DNA of 54,644 bases from a virus. Its lineage: Duplodnaviria; Caudoviricetes. Below, in pieces: positions 3,410-42,937 of this stretch. The translations under genes and the position numbers were made by a program. The first letter of the stretch is position 1. Every line of letters begins with the position of its first letter. Location of the stretch: the IMG/VR virus record IMGVR_UViG_3300032268_001435, positions 1 to 54,644 of that record; one strand, written 5' to 3'. The notes under the pieces were generated by a model. That model was given only the letters and a program-made list of their open reading frames with translations. It was not told the DNA's origin and searched no databases.

Positions 3410-4198
3410 ATGCAAAAAACAAATCTACTCCGCGAGGCAATAAGGGCGATACTCCGCGAGGAGGCGGGACCCGACAAGTCGAGCGCGCTCGCGGACAGGA
3501 TCATAGAGACGAACAAGGGAATGAGGGAGGTGGGACTCCCGTTCCAGATCGTCATCGAGATCTCGGGCGGGGCAGACTTCGAGGCGCAGATCATGCTGAA
3601 GAGGACTGACGCGGGCGGAGGAGACGAGGAGCTCACGCGAATCATGCCCGGATCGACGATCGTCTCGGACTGGATAGAGGAGAACATGATGTCACCGAAG
3701 CGGGAGGCGGCGCTGGAGATCTCAAAGCGTCTTCCCTACGGAAGCATCCTCACAGCACCCCCGTCCCGCAGCGACGGCAAGTGCCTAAGCTCACAGGTGG
3801 TGCAGCTCACGAGGGAGACGCGCCCGGGCTGGGGACCGCTACTATACGACATCGCGCTTGAGGCGGCGACGGAGAGCAGGGGAGGACTCACACCCGACAG
3901 GCTCACGGTCACACCCGAGGCGCAGAGGATCTGGAGGGCGTACGACACGGCGAGGCCCGACGTCTCGAAGCGGCAGCTGGACATCGACCCTCTCGCGATG
4001 GCACTGAGCGACAAGACCTACAGCGGCATCAAGCCAGAGCGCCTCACACCCGACGACCCAACAGACGACTGCGGGCAGGTGTCATCCTGGGAGGCGACAG
4101 ACGGGAACTGGAGCAGCTCACCACTATCACGCACCTACAGCAAGGCGCCCGGGGTGATCCCAAAGCTCGAGGCTGCCGGCGCGATCGTGAGGCGCTGA
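3410..4198 (+). CDS. hypothetical protein with GNAT-like motif and LRxxIRxxLRE N-terminus
   Basis: PGWGPLLYD..LTPD..VTPEAQRIW resembles an acetyl-CoA-binding motif; N-terminus shared with 36840, 38277 and 40420. Confidence 0.7.
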   Translation: MQKTNLLREAIRAILREEAGPDKSSALADRIIETNKGMREVGLPFQIVIEISGGADFEAQIMLKRTDAGGGDEELTRIMPGSTIVSDWIEENMMSPKREAALEISKRLPYGSILTAPPSRSDGKCLSSQVVQLTRETRPGWGPLLYDIALEAATESRGGLTPDRLTVTPEAQRIWRAYDTARPDVSKRQLDIDPLAMALSDKTYSGIKPERLTPDDPTDDCGQVSSWEATDGNWSSSPLSRTYSKAPGVIPKLEAAGAIVRR

Positions 4199-4199
4199 T

Positions 4200-4745
4200 C
4201 CCAAAGTGGGCGTCGACTCGGGCTCGGGCGCGGCTTAAACGAAGAAATACTAGGGGGAGAAGAGCCCCTAAGGGGACACAAGCACTCAAGGGAGCTCTCG
4301 CTACAGGGACGACTAGAGGGGAGCTATAAAGGGGAGACCCAATGCACTCCCAGGCGCCCAGGCGCCCGAGCACGAGCCCAGCACAGTCGGGCGCAGGACC
4401 CAGACCCCTAGCCCCCACCCACTCCTCCCAGTCACACGTGGGCAGTGGCCGATCAGCCACGTCACCCGCTGCTGCGCAGGGGGCACCTCGGGGCGACGCC
4501 CATCAGCGCTGCGCAGTCCCTGCTCGAAAAAGGTGGGGTGGCGGAGGGTGACAAAGAGTGCCAAAAAGTGACAAACATATTACACAAGCTCCGACAAGCT
4601 CCGGCATAGGGGGACAGAGATACTCAGTGGCTGTCGGACTTAGTACCCACGCACTCCCCTCACTGCACGCACTCCCCCGCCACTGCTCTCCCCTGCACCC
4701 TCACTGCGCACCTCGTCTCCCCCTCTCCCCCCGCGCGGCCTCATT
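4200..4745. other. long non-coding low-complexity region at the left edge of the early block
   Basis: No credible ORF; periodic CTA..GGGG runs at 4250-4335, tandem ACAAGCTCCG x2 at 4584-4603, pyrimidine-rich CACTGC repeats at 4650-4735. Confidence 0.6.
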
Positions 4746-9529: not shown

Positions 9530-9535
9530 ACTCCC

Positions 9536-9625
9536 GGAGGAGTGGCCGAGTGGTCTAAGGCACCCGCTTGCTAAGCGGACACACGGTGAAAAGCTGTGTC
9601 AAGGGTTCGAATCCCTTCTCCTCCG
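9536..9625 (+). tRNA. tRNA-Ser(GCT)
   Basis: GGAGGAG/CTCCTCC acceptor, long variable arm, TTCGAAT T-loop. Confidence 0.93.
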
Positions 9626-9675
9626 TCTCCCTCGTCCTGTTGGTTGATCTGGTTGGTTGGTCCTTGATACGAAGT

Positions 9676-9735
9676 CCGTGGAACTTACCTCGTGTAAATC
9701 TACCCAGTGTGGTCTATACTAGGTAAGTTCCACGG
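9676..9735. repeat. perfect 15-bp inverted repeat enclosing a 30-bp promoter core
   Basis: CCGTGGAACTTACCT (9676-9690) / AGGTAAGTTCCACGG (9721-9735). Confidence 0.9.
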
Positions 9736-9740
9736 CAAAT

Positions 9741-9813
9741 GCCCTCGTAGCATAACGGATAATGTCGCTGCCTTCTAAGCAGTCGTATGGGGGTTCGATT
9801 CCCTCCGAGGGTG
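9741..9813 (+). tRNA. tRNA-Arg(TCT)
   Basis: Cloverleaf; anticodon loop CTTCTAA. Confidence 0.92.
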
Positions 9814-9864
9814 CTAACTCTTGCTCTTTGAGCTACATACTTATATTCATGGTGGTTTATCTAC

Positions 9865-10200
9865 ATGAAAAAAGTATGCAAATCTGAAGGTTGTGAAAAC
9901 GTTGTTCCTGGCTCTAGAGGACTCTGGTGCGGTATCTGCAGGAACACACGGCAAAGATACAAGATGACAGGTCCAGAAAGAGCTGCGTTACTTGAAAGTC
10001 AATCTGGTAAGTGCAAGCTCTGCAAACAACAGATTGAGTTCGATGGCACATCACGTCAATATTCAGGGTGTGTCGATCACGATCACAAAACAGGTAGAAT
10101 CAGGGGCATCCTGTGTGGGAACTGCAACACATGGATAGGTTTCCTTGAGAATAGGAAACTCAATTTGCAGGAAGTCCTAGACTATCTCCGAGGGTGCTAA
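9865..10200 (+). CDS. endonuclease VII-family (His-Me finger) putative homing endonuclease
   Basis: QSGKCKLC..VDHDHKTGRIRGILCGNCN; AT-richer than its flanks. Confidence 0.9.
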   Translation: MKKVCKSEGCENVVPGSRGLWCGICRNTRQRYKMTGPERAALLESQSGKCKLCKQQIEFDGTSRQYSGCVDHDHKTGRIRGILCGNCNTWIGFLENRKLNLQEVLDYLRGC

Positions 10201-10270
10201 AAAAAAGAATTCTTGGTCGTGTAAATCAGATGCGGAAGTGTTAGATTAGAAGGGTAGAGGACAGGAAAAC

Positions 10271-10343
10271 GGGACGTTAGCTCAGTCGGTAGAGCAGCAG
10301 GCTTTTAACCTGACGGTCGTGGGATCGTTCCCCACACGTCCCA
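10271..10343 (+). tRNA. tRNA-Lys(TTT)
   Basis: Cloverleaf; loop CTTTTAA; atypical T-loop ATCGTTC. Confidence 0.88.
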
Positions 10344-10358
10344 TTCAGGAGGTTCAGC

Positions 10359-10439
10359 GTGTCAGTGATGATGACAATCTCAGCCCTGATGGTTTTCTCG
10401 GTTGTCGTTGACTTTGTTAGGAGATCGATGGACGTCTGA
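10359..10439 (+). CDS. 26-aa hydrophobic peptide
   Basis: AGGAGG SD before GTG; lies between tRNAs. Confidence 0.4.
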   Translation: MSVMMTISALMVFSVVVDFVRRSMDV

Positions 10440-10458
10440 TAGATACTTAGTGGAGTTC

Positions 10459-10531
10459 GGGCGTGTAGCTCAGCTGGGAGAGCATCGGCTTTGCAAGCCG
10501 AGGGTCATCGGTTCGATCCCGATCATGTCCA
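10459..10531 (+). tRNA. tRNA-Ala(TGC)
   Basis: Cloverleaf with G3:U70. Confidence 0.95.
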
Positions 10532-10535
10532 ATAT

Positions 10536-10608
10536 TCCGGGATAGCTCAGTTGGTAGAGCGTTCGGCTGTTAACCGAATGGTCCCTGGTTCGAGTCCAGG
10601 TCCCGGAG
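10536..10608 (+). tRNA. tRNA-Asn(GTT)
   Basis: Canonical cloverleaf followed by a T-run. Confidence 0.95.
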
Positions 10609-10645
10609 CTTTTTTACTTTGGTCTCAATCTCACGCAGAGGAAGC

Positions 10646-10942
10646 ATGACTGATACCCGATACATGTTCGACACTGTGACTGCGCGGAAGCTGGATAGAT
10701 GGGCCCACGCGCCCATCCAGCCCCTTTCAGACGATGAGCTGAACGTCGTGATGTCGAAGCCCCGACGAATCATCTCCCGGGATGCGAATGTCACCCCCTT
10801 CACCGAGCTCTTCCCCCAAAACGGCACACTGGAGTGGGTGGTGGAGCGGCTCGGAGGTGCGGAGCCCGAGTACTACTACGTGAACAACGAGGGATACAAC
10901 TACTCCCGCTACTGCTTCAGGTTCCTGCCTCGCTCCGTGTGA
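10646..10942 (+). CDS. hypothetical protein
   Basis: GAGGA SD; YYVNNEGYNYSRY C-terminus. Confidence 0.7.
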   Translation: MTDTRYMFDTVTARKLDRWAHAPIQPLSDDELNVVMSKPRRIISRDANVTPFTELFPQNGTLEWVVERLGGAEPEYYYVNNEGYNYSRYCFRFLPRSV

Positions 10943-10949
10943 GGCAGAC

Positions 10950-11020
10950 TCGGGGATCGTCTAACGGCAGGACGGAGGTTTTTGGTGCCTCCTATGGGGG
11001 TTCGAATCCCTCTCCCTGAA
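10950..11020 (+). tRNA. tRNA-Gln(TTG)
   Basis: U1-A72 acceptor; loop TTTTGGT. Confidence 0.9.
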
Positions 11021-11023
11021 TCC

Positions 11024-11106
11024 GGGTGGGCCGCAGAGATGGTGAGCTGCAGCTGATTGTAAATCAGCCGTCCATGACTGAGGGGGTTCAAATCCCTCCC
11101 CACCCA
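11024..11106 (+). tRNA. tRNA-Tyr(GTA)
   Basis: Loop TTGTAAA, variable arm, TTCAAAT T-loop. Confidence 0.88.
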
Positions 11107-11112
11107 TTCACT

Positions 11113-11184
11113 GACCCCATCATCTAGAGGTTAGGATCGCGGATTTTCACTCCGTCAACGGGAGTTCGAGTCTCCCTGGGGTCA
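11113..11184 (+). tRNA. tRNA-Glu(TTC)
   Basis: GACCCCA/TGGGGTC acceptor; loop TTTTCAC. Confidence 0.92.
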
Positions 11185-11222
11185 CTCAGTTTCCAATAAC
11201 ACGCTCACTGGAGAAGAAGACA

Positions 11223-11567
11223 ATGAATCTCGTCGATTATAGCAGCAACCAGATCGTGGATCGTGAAGGTGGTTCCAAGCAGTGGGACAGCGGCAGCTAC
11301 GAGCGTATCCGCTTCAGGAACGGATACGGTGTCTCGATCATCACCGGCGGCTCGGCATACGGGCGTGCCGGCACGCTGGAGATTGCCGTCATCCGATTTC
11401 GGGGCGAGAGCAACGACGACTTCGAGCTGTGCCACGACACCCCCATCACGTCAGACGTCATCGGCCACCTGAGCCACGATCAGGCCCGTGGAATCCTGGA
11501 GCAGATCGCTGCACTGCCCCCGGACGCGAAGGCACTTCCTGGAGCGATGTTAGATTACGAGTCGTGA
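11223..11567 (+). CDS. hypothetical phage protein
   Basis: GGAG SD; FRNGYGVSII..LEIAVI..TPITSDVIG. Confidence 0.8.
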   Translation: MNLVDYSSNQIVDREGGSKQWDSGSYERIRFRNGYGVSIITGGSAYGRAGTLEIAVIRFRGESNDDFELCHDTPITSDVIGHLSHDQARGILEQIAALPPDAKALPGAMLDYES

Positions 11568-11627
11568 TGCATAGACGGTAAAGCAAAATTAGTATACAAC
11601 TTGCTCTACTAACTTTATATTACATGC

Positions 11628-12110
11628 ATGGAAAACAAATTTGAATGCATGTATTGTGGTCAAAATGAGTGGGTTTCTAAAAAAGGAATGAGATATCATC
11701 AGGCTTTTTGTGACAAGAATCCAAACAAGAGAAAACCTGCACCGAAATCAGAAGCTTTTTATAAAGCAATGAAAGAAAGGAGGGGCATCTCTACAAATCA
11801 ATGGACAGACTTTGATTGGAGTTGTGTTCCATTTGAAAGCCTGGGTGGTCTAAAGCGCAGAGAACTACTTTTTAAAGAGTCTAAATATAGTTGCAGTCGT
11901 TGCGGTTTTAATGAAACAAGAGACTGTGGTGGTGTTATACTAGAAGTTGATCATATTGATGGAGACCACAAGAACAACACACGTGAAAATCTTCGTGTTC
12001 TCTGTCCAAACTGTCACGCATTGACCCCAAACTTTAGAAACTGGGGTCGATCAAGAGAGAAGACTTCAGGAAGAATTAGAAAAGGAAATAAAAACTTTCC
12101 TAGTAAATAG
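11628..12110 (+). CDS. HNH endonuclease
   Basis: CSRCG..LEVDHIDGDHKNN..NLRVLCPNCH; AT-rich. Confidence 0.92.
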   Translation: MENKFECMYCGQNEWVSKKGMRYHQAFCDKNPNKRKPAPKSEAFYKAMKERRGISTNQWTDFDWSCVPFESLGGLKRRELLFKESKYSCSRCGFNETRDCGGVILEVDHIDGDHKNNTRENLRVLCPNCHALTPNFRNWGRSREKTSGRIRKGNKNFPSK

Positions 12111-12125
12111 TTAGAATTGTCTTAA

Positions 12126-12197
12126 GCCCTTGAAGCATACTGGTCATGCACCTCACTTGTAATGAGGAGAAAGCTGGTTCGATTCCAGTCGGGGGCT
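12126..12197 (+). tRNA. tRNA-Thr(TGT)
   Basis: Cloverleaf; loop CTTGTAA. Confidence 0.9.
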
Positions 12198-12218
12198 TCA
12201 CAGATTAGAGGTTTGTCC

Positions 12219-13124: not shown

Positions 13125-14531
13125 ATGGCAAAGAACACTTCCACATCGAACGATCTCCCCCAGGCCTCCAAGGAGGTCACCAAGGCGCAGGCTGACGCCT
13201 TCGACATCGATCCCCACCTCATCAACCTCATGTGGGATGAGCCCTTCTTCTCGAAGGTGCTCCGCCCCGTCACGAAGATTCGCTCGGAGGAAATCTCCAC
13301 GGCGGGCGTGCTCGCCAAGGACGGCGACATCAACATGTGGTGGAACCCCTACTTCCTCGCCGGCCTCACGTCCAAGCAGGTGAAGGGCCTCCTCAAGCAC
13401 GAGTGCTTCCACCTCGTTCTCGAGCACACCACCACCCGGCGCATGGAGCCCCACACGCTCCACAACTACGCGACGGACCTCGCCATCAACTCGATGATTC
13501 CGGAGGAGGAGCTCCCCGAGGGTGGTCTCATTCCGGGCAAGGCGTTCAAGCCGCTGGAGCCCGAGATCGCGGCGAAGATTGGTGAGGCTGCTGTCGCCCG
13601 CCACGAGCGAATCAGCCAGAAGATCGCGTCGCTGCCGAAGGGCCTCTCCTCCGAGCAGTACTTCGCGCTCCTCCAGGACGTGGCTGAGGACATCGAGAAG
13701 GCTGCCAAGGGCAAGAGCCTCGCACAGGCGCTGAAGGACGGCGACGTCCGCGTCGACGAAAACGGCAACCTGGTGGACGCAGACGGCAACCCTGTGCGCA
13801 TCGTCCCCGGTGGGATGGACGACCACGAGGGCTGGGATGAGATGGACGACGAGGAGCGGGAGCTCATCAAGGGCAAGGTGAAGCAGGCGCTGGAGCGTGC
13901 GGTCAAGGACTGTGACTCCTCGGGCCAGTGGGGCTCGATCCCCGCGGAGACCCGTCAGAAGCTTCGAGACCTCCTCAGCCGAGAGATCGACTGGAAGTCG
14001 GTCCTCAAGCAGTTCTGCGGTATGACCCGCCGCGCGGACCGCACCACCAACGTGAAGCGGCTCAATCGGAAGTATCCGGCGATCCAGCCTGGCACCCACC
14101 GGAACTACACGTCGTCGATCGCGGTCTACATCGACCAGTCGGGCTCCGTGGACGATGAGTCGCTGGAGCTCCTCTTCGGAAACCTGATGACGCTCGCGAA
14201 GCACACGGAGTTCACGATCTTCAACTTCGACACCGAGGTGGACGAGAAGTCGGAGCGCGTCTGGAAGGGGAACAAGAACCCGGGTCTCGCCCGGACGCGG
14301 TGCGGCGGGACGGACTTCAAGGCGGCCTCGGACCACGCCAACAAGAACAAGCACCGGTTCGATGGGTACATGATTTGCTCCGATGGAGAGTGCACAGATC
14401 CTGGACCTTCTCTTCTCAAGCGCTGTTGGATTATCGTCCCCGATCGAAAGATGCTCTTCAATCCCAGCAAGCGTGATGCTGTTGTCAAGATGAAGCGTAA
14501 CAAGGTGGTCGGCGTCTCAAGTTCTACCTAA
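13125..14531 (+). CDS. metallopeptidase + VWA-like protein (DUF2201-like), probable MoxR partner
   Basis: HECFH, NYATDLAIN, MIDAS DQSGS, GGTDF, SDG. Confidence 0.9.
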   Translation: MAKNTSTSNDLPQASKEVTKAQADAFDIDPHLINLMWDEPFFSKVLRPVTKIRSEEISTAGVLAKDGDINMWWNPYFLAGLTSKQVKGLLKHECFHLVLEHTTTRRMEPHTLHNYATDLAINSMIPEEELPEGGLIPGKAFKPLEPEIAAKIGEAAVARHERISQKIASLPKGLSSEQYFALLQDVAEDIEKAAKGKSLAQALKDGDVRVDENGNLVDADGNPVRIVPGGMDDHEGWDEMDDEERELIKGKVKQALERAVKDCDSSGQWGSIPAETRQKLRDLLSREIDWKSVLKQFCGMTRRADRTTNVKRLNRKYPAIQPGTHRNYTSSIAVYIDQSGSVDDESLELLFGNLMTLAKHTEFTIFNFDTEVDEKSERVWKGNKNPGLARTRCGGTDFKAASDHANKNKHRFDGYMICSDGECTDPGPSLLKRCWIIVPDRKMLFNPSKRDAVVKMKRNKVVGVSSST

Positions 14532-14590
14532 AATGCATAAGCACGTGCATTAGTTAGCCGTCCAATGATATTTATATCTGGAGGCTTCTG

Positions 14591-15211
14591 ATGAGACTGT
14601 GCGAATTCATAGGCTGCAATCAAGAACTTAAGACACATCAAAACAGATTCTGTTCAAAGACATGTGCTAATCTGCATCGATGGGGTGCAAAAGACAAAAA
14701 CGGCAAGCTCATTATCAAGACGTGTATTGCATGTGGTAAAGAATGGGAATCACGTAGAAATGAATCAAAGCGTCAGCGTCTCACTTGCAGTGATGCATGT
14801 GAATATGAAGCTCGAGGACGTGTACATCGTCTTCCGATGTCTGACGACACAAAAGAAAAGCTCTCACGTTCTCACGCAGGAAAAGTTTTAAGCGATGATC
14901 ATCGATATGCAATCGGACGTGGCGTGTCTGGTTCTAGCAACACACACTGGATAGATGGTCGATCCCGCAAGAAAAAGGGCGCAGAAGATTACAATTTTGA
15001 GTTTTCAGATTCCTTAAAGACGACCATAAAGAAAAGAGACAACTTCAGATGTCGTAAGTGTGATGAAGATGGTTCAAAGTTCAGACTTTTTATTCATCAC
15101 ATAGATTTCAATAAGAAGAACAATTCAATTGACAATCTTGTCACAGTCTGTTCTTCATGCCACAGTCGAATTCATGGAAGAACTCTTGACAACACTTTTA
15201 ACATGACATGA
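14591..15211 (+). CDS. HNH endonuclease with NUMOD3-like motifs
   Basis: SDDTKEKLS; RDNFRCRKC..IHHIDFNKKNN..NLVTVCSSCH. Confidence 0.9.
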   Translation: MRLCEFIGCNQELKTHQNRFCSKTCANLHRWGAKDKNGKLIIKTCIACGKEWESRRNESKRQRLTCSDACEYEARGRVHRLPMSDDTKEKLSRSHAGKVLSDDHRYAIGRGVSGSSNTHWIDGRSRKKKGAEDYNFEFSDSLKTTIKKRDNFRCRKCDEDGSKFRLFIHHIDFNKKNNSIDNLVTVCSSCHSRIHGRTLDNTFNMT

Positions 15212-15296
15212 ATGTCCCCTCGGGCAGCTTGATATACAACCGGGTTCCCCGGGTTACACAGAAGACAACGACTCAAGAGGAAGGTAGGATAAAGGG

Positions 15297-15521
15297 ATGA
15301 AGATGAAGGGTGGTCCACTGGGACGCGGTGAGGGTGCTCCGAAGCCCCGCAAGTGGGAGCAGGCTGAGGAGGCGACGAAGTGGTGCAACGTCTGCCGCGA
15401 CTACACGGAGCACGACCGGTTCGGGTGTGTTGAGTGCTACGACCCAGTGCGGGACAAGATCGAGGAGCTCGACGAGGAAGACCCGGATGTAGGGGACGAG
15501 CAGCCCGTCGCGTCCAAGTGA
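15297..15521 (+). CDS. small zinc-ribbon protein with acidic tail
   Basis: CNVC..CVEC. Confidence 0.7.
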   Translation: MKMKGGPLGRGEGAPKPRKWEQAEEATKWCNVCRDYTEHDRFGCVECYDPVRDKIEELDEEDPDVGDEQPVASK

Positions 15522-15544
15522 CACTTGCCCCCTGGGGGGCTCAC

Positions 15545-15591
15545 GGGGCTATGCCGGAACCGGTATACGGACGTGGTGAAAATGTAGACAC
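15545..15591 (+). pseudogene. two overlapping tRNA-Leu-like 5' fragments (acceptor strand + D-arm)
   Basis: GGGGCTATGCCGGAACCGGTATACGG and ACGGACGTGGTGAAAATGTAGACAC; no anticodon or T arm follows. Confidence 0.55.
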
Positions 15592-15620
15592 TCGTGCATA
15601 CTTATGATTTTGGAGGTAGT

Positions 15621-16238
15621 ATGCACGAGTGCAATGGATGTGCCAAGATCTTTGAAAGAGAGAGAAGCCTAAACACACATAAGCGTTTCTGCAAGATGTG
15701 GCAGTCTCTCGGGCTAAAGAAGAATAAAGATCATCTGAACGTTGAAGTCAGAAAGAAGATTTCTACTTCATGTCCCTTGTGTTCAAGAGAGTTTGAAAAC
15801 GTCTACGCAATGTCTGCACACAAGGGACACTGCTCGGGTGCAAATTCAACTCTTCATCTTGAAGAAGCACGTAGGTGGTCGAAAGGTCTAAAGTCCGAGA
15901 CTGACGAAAGAGTTAGACGGCAAGCGCTTAAACAAACGATCCCACTTCAGTATATTATCGATGGAAACCACCCAAAGGCACAATCTTACGGTCTCAAGAG
16001 AAAACTTTTGAAGCACGGTGTGTTCAACAACGCGTGCAGCATTTGCGGTCTTGAAGAGTGGATGGGATCACAGATTCAATGTGAACTTGATCATGTGAAC
16101 GGAAACAGACACGATCATAGATTAGAAAACTTGAGAATGTTGTGTCCTAACTGTCATTCTCAAACAAATACATTCCGAGGAAAGAACAAGGGTTCATATA
16201 ACAAATCACGCCTGGGTGATGGAACAGGTGAGACATAG
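15621..16238 (+). CDS. HNH endonuclease with N-terminal C2HC zinc fingers
   Basis: GGAGG SD; CSICG..ELDHVNGNRHDHRLENLRMLCPNCHSQT; stop lies inside tRNA-Leu. Confidence 0.92.
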   Translation: MHECNGCAKIFERERSLNTHKRFCKMWQSLGLKKNKDHLNVEVRKKISTSCPLCSREFENVYAMSAHKGHCSGANSTLHLEEARRWSKGLKSETDERVRRQALKQTIPLQYIIDGNHPKAQSYGLKRKLLKHGVFNNACSICGLEEWMGSQIQCELDHVNGNRHDHRLENLRMLCPNCHSQTNTFRGKNKGSYNKSRLGDGTGET

Positions 16239-16294
16239 CGGACTTAAAATCCGCCGGGGTAATGCCCATGCGGGTTCGACTCCCGCCCCAGGTA
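16210..16294 (+). tRNA. tRNA-Leu(TAA)
   Basis: GCCTGGG/CCCAGGT acceptor, loop CTTAAAA, variable arm. Confidence 0.92.
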
Positions 16295-16319
16295 CTAAAT
16301 AATCTAGGAGACATGTAGA

Positions 16320-16658
16320 ATGTTCGGTTCGCTCTTCAGGACAATCAAGGAGTCGGTGGTCTCGGTTGGCAATACTGAAGATCCCGATGCGCCCTTCAAG
16401 TGGGCACAGAGGTGCGGGATCAGGAGGGATCCCAAGGTCTTCGCCTGGGTTGACCTACACCCTCTCAGTGTGGGAGGCGGTGAACCGTACGATGGGATGA
16501 ACGGCCCTTACGGATTCACAACTCGTGACGCTGAGCTGATCGACTCCTTCATCAGAGCAGCACGGTCGCAGGGTGAGGACGTTGCGGGGTGGATCGTTGA
16601 GTCCAATGACGGTGACGAGTGGCAGCGATGTGACGGTGCCTGGGACAAGAACTGGTGA
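16320..16658 (+). CDS. hypothetical protein
   Basis: AGGAG SD. Confidence 0.7.
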   Translation: MFGSLFRTIKESVVSVGNTEDPDAPFKWAQRCGIRRDPKVFAWVDLHPLSVGGGEPYDGMNGPYGFTTRDAELIDSFIRAARSQGEDVAGWIVESNDGDEWQRCDGAWDKNW

Positions 16659-16667
16659 GGTGAAGCA

Positions 16668-16883
16668 ATGTACGCAAACAGGATGATCGTGGGCGTGACG
16701 GTTCGGTGCGGGGAGTGCAACAGGATTGGGACAACCACAGCCCAGCTCACGCCCAATGTCGTTGCAGGCGAGCTCGTGCTGCGTTCCGACAACATGCAGC
16801 CTCCTGCGGACTGGACAACCAAGCAGGTGGACTCCCGAGTCGAGGAGCTCTTCTGCCCAATCTGCTCCCGTGAGGCCCTGTGA
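16668..16883 (+). CDS. small zinc-ribbon protein
   Basis: CGEC..CPIC; GAGGT SD. Confidence 0.7.
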   Translation: MYANRMIVGVTVRCGECNRIGTTTAQLTPNVVAGELVLRSDNMQPPADWTTKQVDSRVEELFCPICSREAL

Positions 16884-16999
16884 TCATTGAGAACTTCCTA
16901 GTGCTGCTCGTCGCGCTAGGCATCTTTTTTGGCACTCTCTCGCTCGGGCGCGCAAAGGACCACATTGGGTCGACACGATCGAGGAACGGTGACAAGTGA
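16880..16999 (+). CDS. 39-aa membrane peptide
   Basis: GTGA overlaps at both ends; hydrophobic N-terminal half. Confidence 0.5.
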   Translation: MIIENFLVLLVALGIFFGTLSLGRAKDHIGSTRSRNGDK

Positions 17000-17502
17000 G
17001 CCTTCGGAACGACATCACTGGAAACCACCTCGGGTTCAGGGTGGACATGCTGGAGAAGGAGAGCAAGAACCACGATGAGCTCATTGAGTGGCTGATCGAG
17101 CGTGTCGCGCTGCTCGAGTCCCCACACCAGCAATTGTCAGCATCACCTCTCGGTCCGGACTACACTCCTCTGTCAGAAGTTCCAACTGTGCCCCGACAGG
17201 CCGCAGCACTTCCAGGCCTGAGCTACGAGATCGATGCACTTCGACATCGTGCGGAGGCGCAGGAAACACAAATCTCTGAGGACGCACTGTTGATTGAGCG
17301 CCTCAGGACTGAACTGGATGCTGCACGTGAGGAGGCAATCAGCTGCGCGCTCGATCGTGATCGTGAGCGGTCCCAGGCGAACGAGTGGCTCGTGCAGTTG
17401 CACGATGCGAAGAAGGAGCTCGTGCGTGCGACATCCATCCTGGAGGCAATCCGCTCGGTGACCGAGGAGCTTGGGTTCGAGATGCCGGAGGATCTTTTCT
17501 AA
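16996..17502 (+). CDS. coiled-coil hypothetical protein
   Basis: E/L/R-rich heptads. Confidence 0.75.
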   Translation: MSLRNDITGNHLGFRVDMLEKESKNHDELIEWLIERVALLESPHQQLSASPLGPDYTPLSEVPTVPRQAAALPGLSYEIDALRHRAEAQETQISEDALLIERLRTELDAAREEAISCALDRDRERSQANEWLVQLHDAKKELVRATSILEAIRSVTEELGFEMPEDLF

Positions 17503-42865: not shown

Positions 42866-42937
42866 GCGGCCATAGCTCAATGGTAGAGTCTCAGTTTTCC
42901 AAACTGATTGTTACGAGTTCGAGTCTCGTTGGCCGCT
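42866..42937 (+). tRNA. tRNA-Gly(TCC)
   Basis: GCGGCCA/TGGCCGC acceptor, loop TTTCCAA, U73. Confidence 0.93.

Follow-up and report, generated by a model that had tools for sequence, protein, structure and literature searches.

An HNH endonuclease gene with its own tRNA-Leu(UAA) appears to have overwritten most of a phage tRNA-Leu gene

The locus described here belongs to a viral contig estimated to be about 14% complete (Duplodnaviria; Caudoviricetes; IMG/VR virus record IMGVR_UViG_3300032268_001435), the whole analysed stretch of which (54.6 kb; 54,644 nucleotides, nt) is referred to as the window. In it, a free-standing gene for an HNH endonuclease lies between two short pieces resembling the 5' part of a transfer RNA (tRNA) gene for leucine, fragments 1 and 2, and a complete tRNA-Leu(UAA) gene. 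A preliminary description, made from the letters alone, had proposed that the nuclease inserted within a tRNA gene and brought a replacement 5' half with it. Our analysis leads to a different reading, to which we give a probability of about 0.75: positions 15571-16303 form a mobile cassette, made of a 5' stump (fragment 2), the HNH gene and its own tRNA-Leu(UAA), which overwrote the 3' two-thirds of a resident tRNA-Leu gene. HNH-less contigs show that the 5' part of this resident gene was left orphaned as fragment 1. The locus would thus result from intronless homing, by a nuclease whose specificity we infer, with a tRNA gene as the target and a spare tRNA linked to the nuclease gene. Its features are as follows, all on the + strand, with the evidence for each in brackets.

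15545..15570, +: fragment 1, orphaned 5' part (acceptor strand and D arm) of the resident tRNA-Leu(UAA) (best profile match; HNH-less contigs)
15571..15591, +: fragment 2, partial Leu-type 5' stump, left end of the insert (second-best profile match; absent from contig X6 record 17)
15589..15631, +: 14-base-pair RNA hairpin over the HNH start (fold of -22.8 kcal/mol, z -5.17)
15621..16238, +: free-standing HNH endonuclease gene, 205 amino acids (aa) (open reading frame listing, homologues, conserved residues)
16210..16294, +: complete class II tRNA-Leu(UAA), which arrived with the HNH gene (ARAGORN; Rfam, 51.3 bits; acceptor pairing 7/7)
16295..16303, +: 9-nt trailer, right end of the inserted or co-converted segment (deletions in X6 record 17; X2 record 2 resumes at 16304)
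15571..16303, +: whole putative cassette of about 733 nt, in place of positions 27-85 of the resident tRNA-Leu (contig joints, length arithmetic, acceptor pairing)

The empty site and the incoming tRNA

The sequencing runs with near-identical DNA were freshwater metagenomes. Contigs from four of them were aligned to 14400-17400, and only the parts of the window covered by contigs were used as evidence. The HNH gene was present in the window, X3 record 6 and X4 record 13, and absent from X6 record 17 and from X2 records 1 and 2. These comparisons showed that the HNH insertion is polymorphic among near-identical phages, and such presence or absence at one locus of otherwise near-identical genomes is a feature of free-standing homing endonuclease genes.

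The 1965-nt contig X6 record 17, which comes from a study other than that of the likely source sample, matches 15223-15563, continues with 8 letters and then matches 16237-17400. In this second part a letter is added after 16258, and 1, 3 and 6 nt are missing at 16264, 16288 and 16298, respectively; the indels affect variable arm, acceptor strand and trailer. Fragment 2 is absent from this allele. X2 record 2 (168 nt) matches 15483-15563, followed by 66 letters and then by 16304-16324. In both contigs the distance between 15545 and 16304 is 85 nt, the length of a class II tRNA-Leu. They showed that the empty site is one intact 85-nt tRNA-Leu gene starting with fragment 1. Since the HNH-less alleles start in this way and span 85 nt, it follows that about 733 nt (15571-16303) replaced the rest of the resident gene. 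The preliminary description was therefore right to place the nuclease within a tRNA gene: the HNH element occupies a former tRNA-Leu, and its left edge coincides with the D-arm/anticodon-stem boundary. HNH-less relatives, which it had named as a check, do exist; they have neither fragment 2 nor a free fragment 1, as the latter forms the start of their intact tRNA. The third HNH-less contig, X2 record 1 (3057 nt), lacks 15476-16193 and retains the window-type tRNA after the last 16 nt of the HNH reading frame, including the codons of the conserved C-terminal Ser-Tyr. It looks like a genome that had the cassette and later lost the nuclease gene.

ARAGORN found 11 tRNA genes in the window, including one tRNA-Leu(taa) at 16210-16295 (85-86 nt), and the Rfam tRNA model matched 16210-16294 over its full length with 51.3 bits. 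The long variable arm, the Leu anticodon and the cloverleaf make this a class II tRNA-Leu. Together with the coordinates of the open reading frame (ORF), these calls confirmed the earlier claim of an intact tRNA-Leu(TAA) overlapped by the HNH ORF. The 5' half of this tRNA is atypical, scoring 5.4 bits on a Leu 5'-half profile. For this profile we used 101 phage tRNA-Leu genes, each with its first 28 nt, and left aside the genes of the window and of locus L088 (see below). The gene is located outside the array of nine other tRNA genes (Ser, Arg, Lys, Ala, Asn, Gln, Tyr, Glu, Thr) found 3-6 kb upstream at 9535-12199; the tRNA-Gly of the window is at 42866-42937.

We considered the possibility that a true half-swap had occurred, in which the HNH gene and a new tRNA 5' half only were inserted between tRNA positions 26 and 27, the resident 3' part being kept. 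This would agree with the joint in X6 record 17, which sets the right boundary exactly at 16236/16237, the D-arm/anticodon-stem boundary, with the alignment of the HNH-less allele from 16237 onward at an identity of at least 85%, and with locus L106, whose stump hardly differs from the 5' half of the tRNA-Leu that lies downstream. Yet the 3' acceptor strand (16287-16293) pairs at 7/7 positions with the new 5' strand (16210-16216), as compared with 1/7 for fragment 1 and 3/7 for fragment 2. Moreover, the insertion and the deletions of the HNH-less allele at 16258-16303 reach into the acceptor strand, the 9-nt trailer (16295-16303) is missing from that allele, the 66 letters of X2 record 2 show no alignment to the window tRNA, and in Aeromonas phages (see below) the entire tRNA allele differs. 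In-silico joining of the fragments to the 3' part of the tRNA, another check that had been suggested, produced no credible tRNA: fragment 1 joined to 16237-16294 was not called by ARAGORN, and one of two joins of fragment 2 to the same segment was called, a result that means little as random 26-mers were likewise called in 24 of 200 cases. Because of the acceptor pairing (7/7 versus 1/7), the uncalled joins and the indels in the 3' part of the HNH-less allele, we conclude that a complete tRNA gene, and not a 5' half, arrived with the nuclease, and the claim of a swap limited to the 5' half was abandoned on the grounds of the 1/7 pairing, the indels and the whole-allele difference in Aeromonas. 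The tRNA allele beside the HNH gene differs from that of the HNH-less alleles, as judged by indels and lengths rather than by the letters of the contigs, and the pairing showed that the present tRNA is a self-consistent whole gene and not a chimera with fragment 1. A true half-swap is thus an improbable account of this locus.

The HNH gene and its tRNA-Leu neighbours

The HNH ORF extends from GTG 15594 or ATG 15621 to TAG 16236-16238. We took ATG 15621 as the start, as the N-terminal residues that it gives (Met-His-Glu-Cys) are shared by the close homologues P0001-P0009. The final 29 nt of the ORF, up to the D-arm/anticodon-stem boundary, double as the acceptor strand and D arm of the tRNA. 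The ORF is an island of low GC content (0.42 over 15571-16209, versus 0.53 for the window). The encoded protein has two N-terminal C2H2/C2HC-like zinc fingers and a C-terminal HNH domain. Its matches to the Pfam families HNH (18.2 bits, cut-off 21.4) and HNH_3 (19.3 bits, cut-off 24.8) are both below cut-off; PF01844 or PF13392 is assigned to several of its homologues by precomputed annotation. In an alignment of 28 homologues, H158, N170, H179, C139/C142 and C175/C178 are invariant, so that the protein has the catalytic His...Asn...His with flanking zinc-binding CxxC pairs of the HNH (His-Me finger) group. Pfam gave only zinc-finger and HNH families, and no GIY-YIG domain. A total of 857 homologues were found at E <= 0.001, the closest with 98% and 73% identity, and a sequence search of solved structures gave nothing significant (best E 0.36, for a zinc finger).

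The start of the gene is covered by a hairpin with arms at 15589-15602 and 15618-15631, the 3' arm pairing ATG 15621-15623 and the 15-nt loop holding GGAGG (15612-15616). None of 200 shuffles of 15589-15631 folded as well, and hairpins covering the start of the HNH ORF recur in relatives (L088, L072 and L027; weak in L161).

A second low-GC HNH ORF (14591-15211, +; 206 aa; Pfam HNH, 25.8 bits) is found 400 nt upstream of the studied locus, directly after a DUF2201/VWA-like gene. It is missing from the X3, X4 and X6 contigs, as these diverge upstream of 15223, and present in X2 record 1; it is therefore a second polymorphic nuclease gene.

Megablast of 14400-17400 against phage records gave no match. 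The proteins flanking the locus (468 and 112 aa) had no relatives in the viral contigs searched, and tblastn with the 468-aa protein gave only matches of at most 27% identity. The HNH family itself was surveyed in 153 non-duplicate loci, which remained when exact duplicates of the HNH neighbourhood had been dropped from a set made up of the window, the phage loci, 80 viral loci and 80 metagenome loci. At least one tRNA gene was present in 139 of them. A tRNA gene started no more than 60 nt downstream of the ORF in 75; in 35 of these the ORF ended inside the tRNA (with its stop at tRNA positions 8-10 in 11 loci), and in a further 28 the gap was 0-10 nt. By tblastn, a tRNA lay under the HNH match in 6 among the 30 phage records listed. 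The survey showed that the family lives in phage tRNA arrays, and next to or inside tRNA-Leu genes. An orphan Leu 5' half was present directly upstream of the HNH gene in 18 loci, where it was followed by a group I intron core in 8 (which makes it a 5' exon), by tRNA-Leu in 8 and by neither in 2. The order Leu 5' stump, HNH gene, tRNA-Leu was thus found in 8 of the 153 loci, including the window, with the Leu-anticodon tRNA following directly (gap -36 to +5). The downstream tRNA was a Leu tRNA in 8/8 of these intron-less stump loci versus 18/67 of the others (Fisher p = 9e-5, for loci that are not phylogenetically independent).

A tree of the HNH domain, built by a quick method from 131 of the 153 loci (86 columns; rows with a stop, or with a match covering less than query residues 112-186, were dropped), was poorly resolved, which prevents the order of events from being drawn from it. 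The window grouped at weak support with L088, L089 and L091, and a clade of 73 rows contained most of the tRNA-Leu-linked members, with intron-borne and free-standing forms interleaved. Immediately next to some HNH genes of the family, the survey also disclosed class-I-like tRNAs of 75-77 nt, which have a Leu anticodon (TAA, TAG or CAA) and lack a long variable arm. Their positions were:

L153, 3258-3332
L154, 1222-1296
L072, 2920-2996
L161, 1822-1897
L089, 629-704

Locus L088 is the sole close full-length relative found in the metagenome scan, its HNH protein being 64% identical to that of the window over the full length. It consists, in this order, of a 5' stump, a hairpin, the HNH gene, 6 nt, a complete tRNA-Leu(caa), 9 nt, and an orphan T arm with acceptor strand. 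This orphan acceptor strand is the exact complement of the first 7 nt of the stump, and the orphan 3' piece resembles the T arm and acceptor strand of the window tRNA. As read from its sequence, L088 is one tRNA gene split by an insert made of HNH gene and tRNA, with both halves kept.

Aeromonas phage avDM4 (OP380596.1) has a homologous, unannotated HNH ORF of 154 aa (L002, 1342-1806), which overlaps a tRNA-Leu(taa) (1771-1854) by 36 nt, so that its TAA stop is the tRNA anticodon. Its relatives 60AhydR15PP and Aes508 are without the ORF and have a different tRNA-Leu allele at the same site; the alleles with and without HNH gene differ in both acceptor strands and in the T stem. An apparent remnant upstream of the HNH gene in avDM4 and avDM5 scored less than 7 bits on the profile and was not counted as a stump.

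The arrangement in the window could also have arisen by deletion, from an ancestor with one tRNA-Leu gene on each side of the HNH gene, the upstream one having lost its 3' part, perhaps after self-cleavage by the nuclease. Such an ancestor would be a common one, as a complete tRNA-Leu is found directly upstream of the HNH gene in 39 of the 153 loci, 7 of which also have one directly downstream. The HNH-less alleles of the same phage hold, however, a single 85-nt tRNA starting with fragment 1 and no second tRNA, and in L088 the 3' piece that a deletion should have removed is found downstream of the cassette, which only an insertion explains simply. We therefore regard a deletion as very unlikely.

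The fragments upstream of the HNH gene

The top match of the Leu 5'-half profile on both strands of the 54.6 kb was at 15548-15569 (10.3 bits, E 0.088), corresponding to fragment 1; the second was at 15570-15591 (8.6 bits, E 0.32), corresponding to fragment 2, and the third scored 6.7 bits. If the two fragments were chance look-alikes, the HNH gene would be an ordinary intergenic insertion abutting a tRNA. In keeping with this, the fragments have no significant likeness to the window tRNA and no match to the generic tRNA model, and abutment on or overlap with a tRNA is routine in the HNH family (gap of at most 10 nt in 63 of the 75 loci with a nearby downstream tRNA). Chance would have to account, though, for the two best profile matches being adjacent, on the right strand and directly before the HNH gene, and it is contradicted by the HNH-less alleles, in which fragment 1 is contiguous with the rest of a tRNA; we consider it scarcely credible. 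Fragment 1 is a genuine tRNA 5' part, because the HNH-less contigs run from 15563 to 16237 and onward as one unit of tRNA length. Its first 19 nt, when scanned in viral contigs, gave a single chance match, in a coding region of L168 without tRNA.

Fragment 2 occupies the position that the 5' stump has in L088, before the start-codon hairpin. It is probably a relic of an earlier invaded tRNA-Leu, carried along with the cassette. Its presence within the inserted segment fits an older invasion elsewhere, and so agrees with the repeated invasions suggested in the preliminary description. That there are two Leu-type 5' fragments, as also stated there, drew mixed but overall positive evidence: the top two profile matches and the HNH-less contigs speak for it, and the alignment to a covariance model that had been offered as a check failed, the generic Rfam tRNA model finding neither fragment. 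The idea that the fragments are copies of the 5' half of the window's own tRNA was rejected on the basis of shuffle scores (below).

It is also conceivable a priori that the HNH gene belongs to a group I intron in tRNA-Leu, with the fragment as exon 1, since the Rfam group I intron model passes its gathering score directly after the HNH gene in L110, L012, L115 and L102 and in-silico removal of a 692-742-nt intron after U34 gave an ARAGORN tRNA-Leu(taa) in 4 of 10 loci tried, but this is refuted for the window, where no core (RF00028) was found at E <= 10 in 15200-16600 nor at the gathering score over the whole window, where the HNH gene runs directly into a complete tRNA, and where fragment 1 ends at the D arm instead of after U34 and yields no tRNA call when joined to the 3' part. 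With the ORF alone between stump and tRNA, the earlier view of an intron-free homing locus was upheld.

Several members of the family do reside in introns: in the viral and metagenome contigs L012 (2247-3060), L013, L102, L115, L162 and L110, a group I intron of about 690-740 nt, with an HNH ORF of this family, interrupts the tRNA-Leu(UAA) gene after U34. In L012, a GOLLD RNA (RF02032, 238.9 bits, full length) is found at 3993-4419, about 1 kb downstream of the intron-bearing tRNA-Leu.

A number of results weigh against the replacement of a resident tRNA-Leu by a cassette carrying its own tRNA. The profile E-values of the fragments (0.088 and 0.32) are weak when each is taken alone. The generic Rfam tRNA covariance model gave no match at the fragments at E <= 10, also when the search ended at the fragment ends. 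As many as 349 of 500 shuffles scored as well as the fragments against the window's own whole tRNA, and 270 of 500 did so against its 5' half. In the HNH-less alleles, the pairing of the 3' acceptor strand with fragment 1 is deduced from length arithmetic alone, and the contigs concerned are metagenome assemblies. As the alignment of X6 record 17 resumes exactly at 16237, a crossover inside the tRNA, amounting to a partial half-swap for the anticodon arm, is possible. The non-independence of the loci affects the Fisher test. The atypical 5' half of the tRNA beside the nuclease is only modestly significant: the median profile score of tRNA-Leu genes directly downstream of an HNH gene is 5.3 bits (n = 27), as compared with 13.2 for those directly upstream of one (n = 42; Mann-Whitney p 0.019) and 13.7 for those located elsewhere (n = 66; Mann-Whitney p 0.087). 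Lastly, the target site of the nuclease and the resistance of the incoming tRNA are presumed.

Proposed mechanism and relation to known systems

Replacement by a cassette could have proceeded as follows. The nuclease would cut HNH-less tRNA-Leu genes near the D-arm/anticodon region; the stumps of the family end at about positions 26-37, and the intron site is after position 34. The break would be repaired from an HNH-bearing genome, so that the nuclease gene would be copied in with its linked variant tRNA-Leu, which presumably escapes cleavage. At the left junction, the ends may have been joined without homology or through microhomology (the CGG/ACGG shared at 15567-15570). It is because this junction formed without homology that the resident stump would survive, in tandem with the carried one. 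The start-codon hairpin probably limits translation of the nuclease, by analogy with those described as limiting translation of T4 nucleases, including segB, and of Aeh1 mobE (PMC2988022). The overlap between ORF and tRNA may be a by-product of tight packing, the ORF running into the tRNA up to the first in-frame stop.

A more tentative idea is that the tRNA-Leu(UAA) intron may have a successor without ribozyme among the members of this HNH family, a portable homing cassette for any tRNA-Leu gene, including those of unrelated phages, with tRNA-derived homology arms and a nuclease-resistant spare tRNA. The carried 5' stump may serve as the left arm and the cassette tRNA-Leu as the right one. 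The resistant spare tRNA, which in some relatives may be a short class-I-like one with a Leu anticodon, may offset the loss of the target. Nuclease and tRNA may be coupled through the overlap between them, as cleavage by RNase P at the tRNA 5' end may remove the stop codon of the nuclease mRNA and so keep the nuclease low.

The documented empty site makes this locus an example of a homing nuclease that colonises a structural RNA gene without a self-splicing intron, by way of a replacement gene. It points to a definite source of orphan tRNA pieces and of allele turnover in the tRNA arrays of phages, and ties nucleases of one family, whether free-standing or borne by an intron, to a single host gene. 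For annotators, HNH ORFs that end inside tRNA genes are real and common (35 of the 75 loci in which a tRNA follows closely). A cultivable system for the idea is provided by pairs of Aeromonas phages, one with and one without a homologous gene. With regard to previous knowledge, the locus appears to extend known intronless homing, through its documented empty site and an enzyme of presumed specificity. In the openly accessible literature we found no description of a nuclease-plus-tRNA cassette splitting a tRNA gene, of the resulting stumps, or of phage tRNA-Leu introns bearing HNH genes; a 2014 review places all phage group I introns then known in protein genes (PMC3984707).

Among the closest known systems is SegB of T4, described as a free-standing GIY-YIG homing endonuclease encoded in a tRNA cluster (PMC2330249, PMC13096335), that is, like the window HNH gene, within a phage tRNA array. 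In these accounts its target is conserved tRNA-gene DNA, and its homing carries neighbouring tRNA genes along and removes recipient markers; a hairpin at its translation start is reported (PMC2988022), as found here. SegB acts on many tRNA genes, of which it recognises the T-loop DNA and cuts the 3' end, whereas the window HNH gene is tied to tRNA-Leu. SegB is located between tRNA genes and, in the portions of these sources that are available, is not described as splitting one or leaving stumps; the window ORF, in contrast, overlaps a tRNA. By analogy, the window HNH gene may thus work like SegB without being a SegB-type (GIY-YIG) member.

The intronless homing of the Seg and Mob nucleases of T-even phages, as presented in PMC2988022, likewise involves a nuclease gene beside a variant of its presumed target, co-inheritance by break repair and co-conversion, and presence or absence of the gene among close relatives. 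There, the target is a protein gene and the junctions are in homologous flanks, so that no stump of the gene is left; in the window, the left junction is inside the target tRNA gene and appears non-homologous, and the linked gene is a complete spare tRNA. HNH genes are reported as the most widespread coding genes in the tRNA arrays of mycobacteriophages and mycobacterial plasmids and have been proposed to generate diversity of the tRNA repertoire (PMC5966550, PMC6409571); the accessible portions of these reports mention no split tRNAs, stumps, overlaps between ORF and tRNA, or empty-site alleles.

The group I intron of tRNA-Leu(UAA) has the same host gene, and relatives of the window HNH gene are found inside it at the canonical site after U34. 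In contrast with this intron, the window element has no ribozyme, and the interrupted gene is replaced by a second gene instead of being rescued by splicing. Finally, temperate phages that integrate into tRNA genes by means of an integrase, such as the Cluster J mycobacteriophages in tRNA-Leu (PMC3706429), also bring a sequence that keeps the tRNA functional. The integration described there depends on a site-specific recombinase and is reversible; attP makes good the displaced 3' end of the tRNA by way of a short identical core. In the window, a nuclease and repair would take the place of the recombinase, a whole tRNA is supplied, and the old 5' end remains as a dead stump.

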